Notes under the pieces: model-generated
Seen by the model: the letters and a program-made list of their open reading frames with translations, nothing else
What the model was told of the DNA's origin: nothing
Databases searched by the model: none
Assembly: GCA_964291675.2 (NCBI GenBank)
Contig: OZ219866.1
Location: forward strand, 896,001 to 960,000
Direction of reading: 5' to 3'
Source of the DNA: Alphaproteobacteria bacterium
GTDB lineage: Bacteria; Pseudomonadota; Alphaproteobacteria; MPNO01
Length of the DNA: 64,000 bases
Translations under genes and position numbers: made by a program
Shown here: positions 2,296-6,050 of the stretch, piece after piece
Layout: every line of letters begins with the position of its first letter
Position numbering within the stretch: the first letter of the stretch is position 1

Positions 2296-3222
2296 CTACT
2301 TCTTCTTCGGCCGGATGAACTTGTCGACATTGGCCTTGTCGACCAGGACGTGGCCGACATAGACGCGCGGGTCGTGCTTGCGGCCCTTGAAATGGCCGTC
2401 CATCGTGTCGACCCCGAGGACCCCCCACTTGACCGGGTTGAGCACCACGGTCAGGTCCATCGCGCCGCGCTTGACCGCCCGTACCGCCGGCGGGATGCCG
2501 TTCATCCCGGTGACGATCACGTCCTTCTTCTTGCCCGCCGCCGCGACCGCCTGGGCGGCGCCCATGCCGAGCTCGTCATTGGCGCCGTAGATCGCCTTGA
2601 CGTCGGGATGGGCGACCAGCGCGTCCTCGCCGTGCTTGAGCCCCATCTCCCGGGTCAGCGCGAGCTCCTGCCGGTAGACGACCTCGATGCCGGGGTGGCC
2701 CTTGAGTCCCTCCTCGTAGCCGCGGGCGAAGTTCATGAAGGCCTGCGCGCCGGCGGGGCCGGCGAGCATCGCGACCTTGCCCTTGCCGCCGATCTTCCGC
2801 GCCGTCCACTCGGCGATTTCGCGGCCCACCCGAATCTCGTCCACGGCGATGTGCAATAGCTGCGCCTTGCACGCCGAGCCCCGGGCGATCGCCATCATCG
2901 GGATGTCGGCCTCCTTCGCCTTGTCGAAGGCGCTGCACAGCGCCTTGGCGTCGATGGGCGAGGCCAGTATTCCGTCGACGCCCTTGGCGATCAGGTCGTT
3001 GATGCCGTTGAGCTGGCGGGCCACGTCCTCCTCGGCGGTGACGACGCTCAGCTTGTAGCCGAGCTGCTTGGCGCGGATCTCGATGCCCTTGAGCATCGCG
3101 ATGTAGAACGGGTTGGTGTCGGAAGCGAGCGCCACGCCGATGGTCTTCTCGGCGGCCGTCGCGGCGCCGGCGATGCCCATTGCTGCGACTGCGGCCGCGG
3201 CGATCAACGCTTTGCGGATCAT
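2296..3222 (-). CDS. Sugar (RbsB-like) ABC transporter substrate-binding protein
   Basis: Signal peptide MIRKALIAAAAV; NPFY and ANDELGMGA motifs; GGAGG RBS before ATG 3222. Confidence 0.88.
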   Translation of the reverse strand: MIRKALIAAAAVAAMGIAGAATAAEKTIGVALASDTNPFYIAMLKGIEIRAKQLGYKLSVVTAEEDVARQLNGINDLIAKGVDGILASPIDAKALCSAFDKAKEADIPMMAIARGSACKAQLLHIAVDEIRVGREIAEWTARKIGGKGKVAMLAGPAGAQAFMNFARGYEEGLKGHPGIEVVYRQELALTREMGLKHGEDALVAHPDVKAIYGANDELGMGAAQAVAAAGKKKDVIVTGMNGIPPAVRAVKRGAMDLTVVLNPVKWGVLGVDTMDGHFKGRKHDPRVYVGHVLVDKANVDKFIRPKKK

Positions 3223-3523
3223 CTTTTCCTCCCCCTGGAACCGCTCCGGTCGCGGCGATCCGCCAAGCTTGCGCGCAAACGCGCCGCGTGTCGATGGGGT
3301 CGGGGCTGCACGGTCCCTCCGGCCCGCCCATGGATGCCCGGATCGAGTCCACTGCTGTCCGGTTTGCCGTGAAACAGTTTCGGTGGGGGCGCGCGAGGGC
3401 CCCATCCAACGCCGGGAGGGAGTTGGCTGAGATCGCCGGAAGGGGGCGGCGGAGACGAGCGGTGGACTTCCCCGATGTGGCCCGAAGCGGTCCCGCGCGG
3501 CGGTCCGGCGTTATGCGGGCCGG

Positions 3524-4774
3524 TCAGGTGGCCTTGGGTTCGGCGCGCCGGGGTTGGATGTAGCCGTAGCGGCGGAGCATTCGGATCCAGCGCGGGGCGT
3601 TGCGCTTGACCATCAGCGCGTCGTAGTCGGCGGTGCGGTCGTAGTAGGGCCTGCCGGTCTTGAGCACGACATAAACGATGCGCAGCATCTTGTGTGCGCT
3701 GGCCACGATGGCGCGCTTGTATCCGCGCCGGGCGGCGAGCGCGCGGTGGTGGGCCTCGAACTGGCACCCCTTGGTTCGGGCCGCGCCGTGGGCACATTCG
3801 ACGAGGCTGGCGCGCAGCGTCTTGGAGCCCCTTCGGGTGCGCGCGTTGCGGCGCTTTCCGCCGCTTTCGTTGTTGCCGGGGCAGAGCCCGGCCCAGGCGG
3901 CGAAGTGCTGCTTGGAGGCGAACGCCTCGATATCCGGGCCGATCTCGATCAGGATGGTCGAGGCGGCGATGCGGTCGATGCCGGGGATGGTGGTCAGCAG
4001 GCGGAGCTGTTCCTGCCACGGCGTCATCTGCCGGTCGATCTTCTCGCCGTAGGACGCGATGCGCGCCTCGAGCGCGTCATGCTCGTCCAGCAGATCGCCG
4101 AGCATGAAGCGGTCGTTGTCGCCCAGGCTCAGGGAGAGCGCCTCGCCGAGCCCCTCCAGCTTGTTGGCGACGTGGCCGGTGAGCGAGGCGAGGATGACCG
4201 CGCGCGGCGTGGCTTGCGCCAGCCCGTCGAGGATCTTGCGGCCGTTGACGCCGAAGACGTCGGAGAGGATGCCGCCGATGCGCAGGCCGGCGCGGTCGAC
4301 GATCTTCTGCACCCGGTTGCGCACGGTCGAGCGCTGCCTGACCAGGGTGCGCCGCTGGCGGCTCAGCGAGCGCAGCTGCCGGAACGGCTCGGGGGGAACA
4401 TGGGAAGGCGTGCAGAGCCCGAACTGGCACACGCAGGCCAGCCACACGCTGTCGGCGACATCGGTCTTGCGCCCCTTCAACTGCTTGACCTGACGCGCGT
4501 GCACCAGGATCGCTTCGATCCCCGCCGCCTCCACCGCCGCGAAGGGCGCCTGCCAGTAGATCCCGGTCCCTTCCATGACAGCGGCCTCGACGCGGCGACC
4601 GGTCAGCCAGGCGACCATCTCCGCCAGACCGCTCGGAAGCGAGCTGAAGCAGCGCGTCTCCACCACCGGCTCGCCCTCGCCCTCGCACAGGCGAACCGTC
4701 GCGGTGATCTCCATCTTGTGCACGTCCAGACCCGCCGCGCGCGGCCGCACGACGTGCAAGCCTTCCGTCTTCAT
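3524..4774 (-). CDS. IS110-family transposase (DEDD recombinase)
   Basis: GLDVHK, MEGTG, KTDVADS (DEDD), TIPGID and GLCPGNNESGGK (catalytic Ser) motifs; GAGGAGG RBS before ATG 4774. Confidence 0.96.
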   Translation of the reverse strand: MKTEGLHVVRPRAAGLDVHKMEITATVRLCEGEGEPVVETRCFSSLPSGLAEMVAWLTGRRVEAAVMEGTGIYWQAPFAAVEAAGIEAILVHARQVKQLKGRKTDVADSVWLACVCQFGLCTPSHVPPEPFRQLRSLSRQRRTLVRQRSTVRNRVQKIVDRAGLRIGGILSDVFGVNGRKILDGLAQATPRAVILASLTGHVANKLEGLGEALSLSLGDNDRFMLGDLLDEHDALEARIASYGEKIDRQMTPWQEQLRLLTTIPGIDRIAASTILIEIGPDIEAFASKQHFAAWAGLCPGNNESGGKRRNARTRRGSKTLRASLVECAHGAARTKGCQFEAHHRALAARRGYKRAIVASAHKMLRIVYVVLKTGRPYYDRTADYDALMVKRNAPRWIRMLRRYGYIQPRRAEPKAT

Positions 4775-4799
4775 CGCTGTCCTCCTCGTTGCGCTCTCG

Positions 4800-5060
4800 C
4801 CACGGCGGCGTAGGATCGCGCCGTGGCATCGCCACGGTGGAGGCGGGGACAGCGGTCGGAAGGACACGCACCCGTCGAGCGGGTGCGGTTCGATTTGCCG
4901 CGCGTCCACGGCCGCGGGCCGGGCACAGTACGGGGTGCGGAGCCGACCGCCGGAAGCAGTTTATATCTCGGGAACCACATCACCGATAAACGGAACGCTC
5001 ACGCGTCGCCGCCTCCACCATTCCCATCCTGCCACGGCAGACCCGCGCGACGATCGGCAA
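4800..5060 (-). ncRNA. Candidate IS110 bridge RNA (boundaries approximate)
   Basis: Noncoding end upstream of the recombinase with nested stems: 4836-4846/5009-5019 (11 bp), 4852-4859/4943-4950 (8 bp), hairpin 4867-4887. Confidence 0.65.
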
Positions 5061-5239
5061 ACCCTCAGCCGAACGCCCCGAGTTTCATGCCACGGGGTGG
5101 CTCAGCACCGCCGAGACCATGACGGTTTATATGAGTTGGACCGGGCGCAAAGCCTTGTTCCGGGCGGGATATCGGCGCATCCGCCGGATCGGGACACGGA
5201 TCGCCGCACGCCCGCACTTGCCGTCCCTGCCCCTCCGTT

Positions 5240-5640
5240 GTCACCCCGGCCTCGTTCCGGGCACCCACGGGCGGGGCGGTCCGCCCCCGGCTCCCGTGCT
5301 TCTCCACCGCCACCCCCACCCCGTCATGGCCGGACTTGATCCGGCCACCCATGCGCGGACTTGATCCGCGCAACCACTGGCGCCACCGGTACAACGCCCC
5401 GTCGGGAGGAGCGGCGGCGCCAGTGGATGCCCGGATCACCCCCGGACTTGATCCGGGGGCCGGGGCATGACGATGGGGGGAGGCATGGTGGTGGGGCGGG
5501 AAACGCCGGGCGCGACGCGCGTCGAAGGCTAAACCGGACAGCAGTGGATCAAGTCCGGGCATGACGAGAGGGGTGTTGGCGCTTCCCCAACCACGTCATG
5601 GCTGGCCCCCGGAACGAGTCCCGGGGGCCAGCCATGACGT
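5240..5640. repeat. Cluster of REP-like palindromes (GTCATGGCCGGACTTGATCCGGCCA family)
   Basis: Copies near 5240, 5323, 5352, 5424 and 5547; 5593-5640 is a hairpin with perfect 20-bp arms. Confidence 0.85.
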
Positions 5641-5663
5641 GGAGCGGAAAGCCCGGCGGGGGG

Positions 5664-6050
5664 TCAGGCCTGGGAGGACGGCGGCATGGGGCCGCCCGCC
5701 AGCATCGGCCCCAGCCGCTTGCCGGCGAAGACGTGGAAGTGGAGGTGCATCACCTCCTGATGCGCATCGGCGCCGCTATTGGCGAGCACGCGGTAGCCCG
5801 GCCCCGACAGGCCCAGCGCCTCGGCGGTCTCGCCGATGGCGCGGATCAGGGCCGACTGCTCCTCGGCGCTCGCCCGTGCCGCGAAATCCGCCATCGAGAC
5901 ATAGCGCCCCTTGGGGATCACCAGCGCATGGACCGGCGCCTGCGGCGCGATGTCGTGGAACGAGAGCGCGTGGTCGTTCTCGTAGATCTTGTTGCAGGGA
6001 ATTTCACCGCGGACGATCCTGGCGAACACGTTGCCGTCGTCATACGCCAT
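5664..6050 (-). CDS. HIT (histidine triad) nucleotide-binding protein
   Basis: HLHFH triad; [11 protein letters not shown]. Confidence 0.93.

Follow-up and report, generated by a model that had tools for sequence, protein, structure and literature searches.

A probable bridge-RNA-guided IS110-group element nested in the terminal repeat of a REP-borne miniature transposon

Results

The locus and its nested elements

The window analyzed in this study is a stretch of 64,000 nucleotides from an alphaproteobacterial genome (assembly GCA_964291675.2, contig OZ219866.1, positions 896,001 to 960,000), and the work concerns an intact insertion sequence (IS) of the IS110 group at positions 3364-5128 of that window, core copies included, which is embedded in a MITE (a miniature transposable element with inverted repeats) that in turn interrupts a repetitive extragenic palindromic (REP) hairpin. 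The IS is approximately 1.76 kb long and carries its gene on the minus strand. From the outside inwards, the left arm of the REP hairpin occupies 3330-3349 and ends in the 9-bp sequence GATCGAGTC (3341-3349), behind which the MITE starts on the plus strand with the outer 16 nt of its left terminal inverted repeat, CACTGCTGTCCGGTTT, at 3350-3365; the 17th base of this repeat, an A, is located at 5129, beyond the IS. The remaining part of the MITE (5129-5546, plus strand) has REP-like hairpins in its body and closes with TAAACCGGACAGCAGTG (5530-5546), the right terminal inverted repeat and inverted partner of the left one. Next to it are the right 9-bp copy, GATCAAGTC at 5547-5555, and the other arm of the REP hairpin (together 5547-5566). 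Removal of the MITE together with one 9-mer from the sequence restores a single hairpin, hence the three-level nesting of the IS110 element in a MITE and of the MITE in a REP, which had been claimed in the original prediction, is real at this locus.

Read along the plus strand, the left flank runs ...GGATGCCCGGATCGAGTC, then CACTGCTGTC and the hexamer CGGTTT (3350-3365); the sequence between the hexamers starts with GCCGTGAAACAG at 3366 and stops with ...GAGACCATGA at 5122, where the second CGGTTT precedes ATATGAG. The hexamer had been proposed to stand at both junctions of the insert (3360-3365 and 5123-5128) as the inner end of the host repeat, and all its coordinates proved correct, with 8/8 copies in this genome (4.8 Mb, two contigs, 69% G+C) in agreement. 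Within the IS, one long open reading frame (3524-4774) is intact and codes for an IS110-family DEDD recombinase of 416 aa. It is bordered by a non-coding right end of 158 nt (3366-3523), which terminates with ...TTTCACGGC beside the AA core and whose terminus is conserved in relatives, and by a non-coding left end of 352 nt (4775-5126), which starts with ACCGTCATGG... after the core and carries the predicted bridge RNA (4836-5019), all of them on the minus strand. The two core copies read TT on the plus strand and AA on the recombinase strand and are situated at the right-end junction (3364-3365) and the left-end junction (5127-5128), respectively.

The assignment of the insert to IS110 was corroborated by matches of the recombinase to the Pfam domains PF01548 (DEDD_Tnp_IS110, E 4.9e-22) and PF02371 (Transposase_20, E 3.5e-23), and by a score of 266.2 bits against the NCBIfam model NF033542, IS110 family RNA-guided transposase, which has a cut-off of 140. 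Its only relatives in the PDB are ISCro4 (9t56, E 9e-15) and IS621 (8wt6, E 2e-14). The motifs GLDVHK, MEGTG, KTDVADS and ESG align with ISCro4; along this alignment, residues D17, E68, D105, D108 and S304 were numbered by hand counting, and S304 is presumably equivalent to the catalytic serine of IS621. In a plasmid search all homologues stayed below 44% identity and were annotated as IS110 family transposase, with no named IS among them. Compared as inverted repeats, the two 60-nt ends of the IS match over 6 nt at best, which was equalled in 488/500 shuffles, and the longer non-coding end is located upstream of the gene (352 versus 158 nt). Hence the element belongs to the IS110 and not to the IS1111 group, whose hallmarks, sub-terminal inverted repeats of 7-17 bp and a longer non-coding region downstream, were not found in this insert.

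Copies of the element and the shared core

The genome harbors eight full-length copies of the insert plus one fragment of 147 nt. When the flanks of these homologous copies were aligned, 8/8 full-length copies were found in the left end of a MITE with the two junctions, the flanks and the orientation identical. The IS copies are 99.5-100% identical to each other, with 12 variable columns among 1757, while the adjoining 160 nt of the MITE show a lowest identity of 94.4% and a mean of 96.4% over the eight copies, indicating that the insert arrived after its host MITEs had diverged. The recombinase frame is intact in 6/8 copies.

Several copies show irregular right ends. In own3 (C2:1937614-1939936) the terminal 147 nt of the right end are present once more beside the full IS, on its right-end side, and the junction of this extra copy is an AA within ...GCAT-AA-CGCC of the right end, which partly resembles the guide target; the arrangement looks as though the element had inserted into itself and one copy had then been lost. 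In own7 (C1:1046168-1048355) the right end finishes with a tandem duplication of its terminal 15 nt (AAACTGTTTCACGGC when read on the recombinase strand), and the 15-nt unit is flanked on both sides by AAAC, as would be expected if a pseudo-core located 15 nt from the end had served the recombinase. The right junctions of own4 (C1:829228) and own8 (C1:543813) read AA instead of AAA before CCGGACAG, from either a target with one A fewer or a later base loss.

The extent of the true core was derived from relatives, for which a scan of one genome per species yielded 79 loci with 58-99% protein identity. Their right end always reads ...TTTC(A/G)C(G/A)GC followed by AA, their left end after AA always reads AC-NN-(T/A/C)CATGG, and outside these conserved ends the flanks are unrelated between elements. 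At the right junction of L052, L055, L060 and L066 only AA is present before the flank diverges, and across the relatives no sequence other than AA is present at every left and right junction. Hence, AA (TT on the plus strand) is the shared core, and the hexamer consists of this core and four coincident bases, because the left end of the IS and the MITE to the right of the core both start with ACCG. The hexamer of the original prediction was therefore correctly placed at both junctions, but only its AA is shared core. Judged from these junction alignments, the CGGTTT repeat is no target-site duplication.

Natural tail-to-head junctions, in which a right end is joined through AA to a left end as expected of a circular form, occur in L028, L033 and L034, which belong to one multi-copy relative. 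The circle junction given in the original prediction is in accordance with the family model and with these junctions of the relative. This relative, with 89-92% protein identity (L015-L059, L078 and L089), is represented by at least 41 parsed copies, most of them in one metagenome-assembled genome and the rest in two other genomes, which possess one guide, GAUGACA-AA-AC; ACA precedes the core in 32/41 of its flanks according to a hand count, its right flanks vary and its sites are dispersed. Copies that abut another copy via the left flank are L018, L029, L033, L037 and L078.

A conserved RNA structure in the left end

The structure of the predicted bridge RNA was obtained from an alignment of 18 left ends, with a fold that was refined by hand and then tested. 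This alignment omits L049, in which the 5' part is diverged or replaced, L068, in which the anchors are unmatched, and L064 and L075, which duplicate L055 and L077. The fold comprises 50 pairs in six helices, and 90.6% of the alignment cells hold standard pairs compared to 38.6-50.3% when the partners were slid by 1-3 columns. Fourteen pairs are changed on both sides, and the covariation score of 0.232 exceeds the 0.125 in shuffles, none of which (0/500) scored as high. A closing stem P1 is followed by a target loop and by a stem P2 that encloses two hairpins with the donor segment between them. In the target loop itself, a 5-bp stem leads into a 5' strand of variable sequence, which is followed by a stem-loop and then by a 3' strand that is likewise variable. 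An Rfam search of 3000-6000 with E values up to 1 returned three chance matches (a microRNA, a long non-coding RNA and a small RNA) and no bridge-RNA family.

The left-end RNA also contains the motif CCGUGG(C) five times (at positions ~34, 91, 217, 291 and 323 of the left end), with the region 4775-4835 noted in this respect. Wobble pairing of this motif with the TCATGG conserved at the left end of the IS would be possible, but covariation gives no support for a role. Some guide candidates were discarded: GCUGUCC (left-end positions 276-282) was rejected as right target guide, as it is the 3' strand of stem P1, and GGUUUGCCG (66-74), a 9-nt complement of the donor, was rejected because this stretch is variable or absent in relatives, while ACCGUGGCG as right donor guide is unsupported.

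Guides covary with the insertion sites

The left target guide AUAUAAAC (4959-4966, minus strand) forms the 3' strand of the target loop and has the same sequence as the MITE top strand where the IS is inserted, i.e. ATAT, the AA core and AC. For a test of this match among the relatives, 67/80 sequences (the 79 loci and the window copy) could be parsed with columns anchored on AAAC; sequences lacking an anchor were left out, including L021, L025, L049, L064, L065 and L068-L075, and one locus was kept per distinct guide pair, resulting in 15 guide variants. Guide and flank are identical at each of the positions -1, -2 and -3 in 15/15 variants and at -4 in 11/15, and 0/2000 permutations were as good; beyond -4 no guide-flank signal was detected. 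The probable right target guide UCCGUUU (4988-4994, minus strand) is the 5' strand of the target loop. In the register that places its 3' end opposite the second core A, 47/90 positions are Watson-Crick pairs compared to 34.3 +/- 3.3 after permutation (0/2000 as high).

In the donor region, the left donor guide CGGCAAAUCG (4891-4900, minus strand) matches the right end of the IS and the core (CGGC, AA and A). The donor segment C(G/A)GC-AA-A equals right end plus core over 6 nt in 17-18 of 18 relatives, and its G/A difference covaries with the right end in 18/18.

Guide and target have also changed together in a sister element from another genome, where L011 and L013 encode recombinases with 99% aa identity to that of the window and display the guide AUCU. 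Both are inserted in MITE ends of the same family that read CATCT-AAACCGGACAGCAGTG, and among the 22 exact repeat ends of that genome, including the two IS right junctions, seven are empty ends with ATCT and none reads ATAT. The sister element has three copies there. The third copy, L012 (G001 C1:1400312-1402072), lies at the site ...GCACGGCT-AA-AGGAG, which resembles its own right end (CACGGC-AA-A) and not the MITE; it is possible that this represents a donor-like off-target.

Site choice within the genome

A BLAST search with the host element revealed 41 copies of the MITE end, eight occupied and 33 empty, and in 32/33 empty ends CACTGCTGTC runs directly into CGGTTT; these 33 ends demonstrate that the MITE exists independently of the insert. 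A separate set was compiled from all ends within two mismatches of the 16-nt repeat after removal of the eight IS right junctions, and it comprises 102 MITE ends with eight occupied and 94 empty. Ends without mismatch to the guide 8-mer were all occupied (five occupied, none empty), those with one mismatch were occupied in three cases and empty in 26, and those with two or more mismatches were never occupied (68 empty), with a Fisher p = 6.7e-7 for zero versus at least one mismatch. The occupied ends read ATAT, ACAT or ATCT 1-4 nt from the junction, with 5/5, 2/7 and 1/18 of such ends occupied, respectively, and ACAT is present in 2/3 occupied ends with one mismatch, where the guide U would face G and form a wobble pair. 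The opposite MITE end usually shows GGCT before AAAC, and 0/31 such GGCT ends are occupied, which explains why the left end alone is hit. The 8-mer ATATAAAC occurs 16 times in the genome, namely in the eight guides within the IS copies, at five occupied MITE junctions and at three empty sites outside the MITE. Two of these three sites lie in one duplicated sequence. To the right of the core the three read ACGA... instead of ACCGGA, which fits a contribution of the right guide.

The MITE and REP layers

The MITE is approximately 415 bp long with terminal inverted repeats of 17 bp, and complete copies without IS measure 177-458 bp, mostly about 415 or 331 bp. It holds no open reading frame of transposase size. 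The copy in the window corresponds to C2:899350-901546 (3350-5546 including the IS), and its 9-mers GATCGAGTC and GATCAAGTC differ by one mismatch and were classed as a direct repeat. That the host element itself targets REPs, as originally suggested, was confirmed in part. Among 26 left-right MITE pairs less than 2.6 kb apart, 13 are bordered by 9-bp direct repeats (up to one mismatch), but four are bordered by inverted 9-mers and nine by neither; since the targets are near-palindromic REP loops, the similarity of the 9-mers is weak evidence for target duplication. The 9-mers have the form GA-N5-TC, corresponding to the loop and first stem pairs of the REP hairpin, and the genome contains 419 REP-like hairpins of the type [CG]CCGGA-N5-TCCGG[CG], in which the loops CTTGA and TCAAG dominate.

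The designation of the host as IS4-like did not hold, because none of the 12 matches to PF01609 (DDE_Tnp_1) in the genome is flanked by these repeats and an autonomous partner was not found. A genome search with PF13808 gave no match, and repeat pairs 1-3 kb apart enclose no transposase, an absence that is unproven given an estimated genome completeness of 93.7%. An ISAs1-type origin of the MITE was also dropped, as it rested on end motifs only and PF13808 had no match.

Further observations relate to these repeats. MITE copies also insert into one another at the internal REP, and at C1:545568-546962 this has given a tandem array of MITE pieces with a period of 330 bp, every further copy beginning within the internal hairpin of its predecessor. 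To the right of the MITE in the window (5585-5645), there is a long perfect palindrome, CCACGTCATGGCTGGCCCCCGG ... CCGGGGGCCAGCCATGACGTGG, a REP-type hairpin that gave the chance match to a microRNA in Rfam. Moreover, a second, unrelated IS110-family element of ~1.5 kb is present in four copies with 97-98% identity (C2:328243-329740, 1414126-1415620, 2996636-2998115 and 1391704-1393176), with REP hairpin sequence on both sides; two of them are located within ~130 nt of a MITE left end, and one of these two is about 460 bp from the IS copy own2.

Discussion

Collectively, our data make it very probable that a bridge RNA guided the recombination through which an intact IS110-group IS entered the MITE, at an AA core just inside the left repeat. 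The original prediction had the recombinase aimed at the MITE end, and this is supported by the same site in 8/8 copies, the match of the guide, the covariation among 15 guide variants and the occupancy pattern of 102 ends. In the proposed order of events, the MITE would have inserted first into the loop of a REP hairpin. The left end of the IS encodes a structured RNA, whose left target guide would read the MITE end, while the left donor guide in a second region of the RNA (CGGC-AA-A) matches the right end of the IS itself, and the AA common to both sites would be the place where the DEDD recombinase exchanges strands. Strand exchange at this dinucleotide would explain both the absence of a target duplication and the fixed orientation. 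Whereas the anatomy, the copy-number and flank statistics and the covariation of RNA structure and of guides with flanks are direct observations, the production of the bridge RNA, its binding to the recombinase and the formation of a circular intermediate are presumed.

The MITE and its resident IS might alternatively have spread as a composite, by the MITE transposase or by gene conversion, with no targeting by the IS at each event. This is improbable as an account of all copies, although one pair of them is suggestive. The copies own7 (C1:1046199-1047953) and own8 (C1:543813-545567) have in common a 1-nt frameshifting deletion and one substitution absent elsewhere, as well as two variants of the MITE body found nowhere else in the genome, and they reside at different loci with different outer flanks; own7 is moreover bordered by 9-bp direct repeats without a mismatch. 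IS insertion keeps 16 of the 17 terminal MITE bases at the outer edge, and the composite could therefore possibly be moved as a unit of 2.2 kb. However, when the bodies of 37 MITEs were placed on a tree, the occupied copies did not form one clade, six changes being required and at least three of them forced by well-supported branches, two sets of identical MITE bodies contain both occupied and empty copies, and the MITE closest to that of the window (97.9% over 425 nt, C2:2793096) is empty. The occupied copies also differ 1-4 nt from the junction (ATAT, ACAT, ATCT), relatives with other guides occupy unrelated, non-repeat sites that match their own guides, and a MITE transposase was not found in the genome. 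The pair own7/own8 is equally explained by a working recombinase that moved the frameshifted copy in trans into a sister MITE. Hence, composite spread fails in general, and it may account for the pair own7/own8.

Recognition of the MITE end by protein-DNA contacts or by DNA structure, e.g. that of the inverted repeat or of the REP hairpin next to it, with an incidental match of the left end, is very unlikely in our view. Such recognition would be in line with the shortness of the programmable match (4 nt plus the fixed AAAC) and with the finding that all targets in this genome adjoin palindromic DNA, and a structure component has been proposed for another IS110 element in a preprint (10.64898/2026.03.19.712850). 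It does not account for the match of 15/15 variants with their flanks at three positions (0/2000 permutations), nor for the 41-locus relative, whose dispersed sites share only ACA and AA (32/41 by hand count). Furthermore, the opposite MITE end offers the same repeat and REP neighborhood, yet its GGCT ends are never occupied (0/31). Finally, the idea that the MITE is merely part of a longer IS110-containing element with its own inverted repeats, which could be based on the embedding of 8/8 IS copies in a MITE, is refuted by the empty MITE copies and can practically be set aside, because 94 MITE ends lack the IS, complete copies of 331-434 bp without IS have their own 9-bp repeats, and related IS copies in other genomes occur without these flanks.

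Targeting of the MITE end by the bridge RNA of the IS thus remains the preferred explanation, and several findings weigh against it. A sigma-70-type promoter was found neither in 3300-5200 nor at the natural junction of right and left end in L028. The programmable part of the left guide comprises just 3-4 nt beside the fixed AAAC. The signal of the right target guide, judged from the pairing statistics, is real but modest, and weaker than that of the left guide: read by eye, UCCGUUU pairs with AACCGGA (the second core A and the MITE repeat) in 6/7 positions with one mismatch, and the pairing is poorer in L011. For the right donor guide, a column-by-column search gave only signals that are explained by relatedness. 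The order of the target guides, with the complement of the top strand first, is the reverse of that in IS621. In addition, the common frameshift and the private MITE variants of own7 and own8 imply that at least one copy need not be an independent IS insertion.

The mechanism itself is already known. As far as the published accounts of IS621 go, which like other IS110 elements naturally targets REPs (Durrant et al. 2024, PMC11208160; Hiraizumi et al. 2024, PMC11208158), the present element resembles it in its DEDD recombinase with a C-terminal Ser-bearing domain, in the long non-coding left end upstream of the gene that encodes a structured RNA, in left guides that equal the top strand of target and donor up to a shared 2-nt core and a right guide that is complementary, with the core included in the pairing, and in the lack of target duplication, the fixed orientation and the use of repeats as natural targets. 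However, the protein of 416 aa matches IS621 and ISCro4 (328 and 341 aa) only weakly (E about 1e-14), in the case of IS621 over the C-terminal part only. Compared to what is described for IS621, the core is AA instead of CT, the target loop has the top-strand complement first and the bottom-strand match second, only 3-4 nt to the left of the core are programmable, the donor guide is placed in a three-helix junction instead of a simple internal loop, and the target is a transposon end instead of a REP. The guide order is also opposite to that stated for IS110-type seekRNAs, in which the bottom-strand match reportedly comes first (Siddiquee et al. 2024, PMC11187229).

Members of the IS1111 group offer a second comparison. 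IS4321 and IS5075 reportedly target the terminal repeats of transposons. Both they and the element described here are IS110-family members that enter the terminal repeat of another element in one orientation. Those IS1111-group elements have sub-terminal inverted repeats, a guide RNA downstream and a Tn3-family host, whereas here the RNA is located upstream and the host is a MITE, non-autonomous and itself inserted in a REP. In Coxiella burnetii, 20/21 copies of IS1111 lie inside QMITE2, with empty MITEs alongside (Wachter et al. 2018, PMC5896051), so the IS resides nearly always within a MITE in both cases (20/21 there, 8/8 here). In the available part of that description, however, an element of the IS1111 and not of the IS110 group lies in a GTAG REP inside the MITE instead of at the inner edge of the terminal repeat, and guide-target covariation does not figure in it. 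Natural redirection is described in the seekRNA report for the pairs ISEc11/ISXne4 and ISEc21/ISMch6 (PMC11187229); as in our sister element, close relatives have altered guide bases in matching altered targets, whereas here the proteins are 99% identical and a single guide base tracks the variants of one MITE end. In the open-access literature searched, no description was found of an IS110-group element that is directed to a MITE terminal repeat; such cases may be contained in the tables supplementing the papers by Durrant et al. and Siddiquee et al., which list the targets of many IS110 elements. The present case combines an IS110-group element, an upstream RNA and the inner edge of a MITE repeat as target.

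A more far-reaching view, which we put forward only tentatively and consider rather doubtful, is that elements with recombinases of ~406-416 aa represent a clade that combines a distinct bridge-RNA layout, the life of a hyperparasite of MITEs with base-by-base drift of the guide, and a second route of spread via the composite. The layout would be characterized by the right guide before the left one, 3-4 programmable bases next to an AA core and a donor guide in a three-helix junction. The hyperparasitic habit might be reflected by AUAU here and AUCU in the 99% identical sister, each of which follows the variants of the MITE end. If this holds true, the MITE transposase could still move MITE and IS together as a second route for the IS, as own7 and own8 might illustrate.

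The genome provides a natural experiment on bridge-RNA targeting, in which 102 near-identical sites differ mainly in the four left-guide bases and occupancy shows a within-genome dose response, from 5/5 to 3/29 to 0/68 as the mismatches rise, complemented by one-base natural retargeting in the sister element. The variant guide order and donor region could widen the range of scaffolds for programmable recombinases. Furthermore, the locus illustrates the nesting of selfish DNA in three layers, namely REP, MITE and IS110 element, with a hint that the inner two may travel together.

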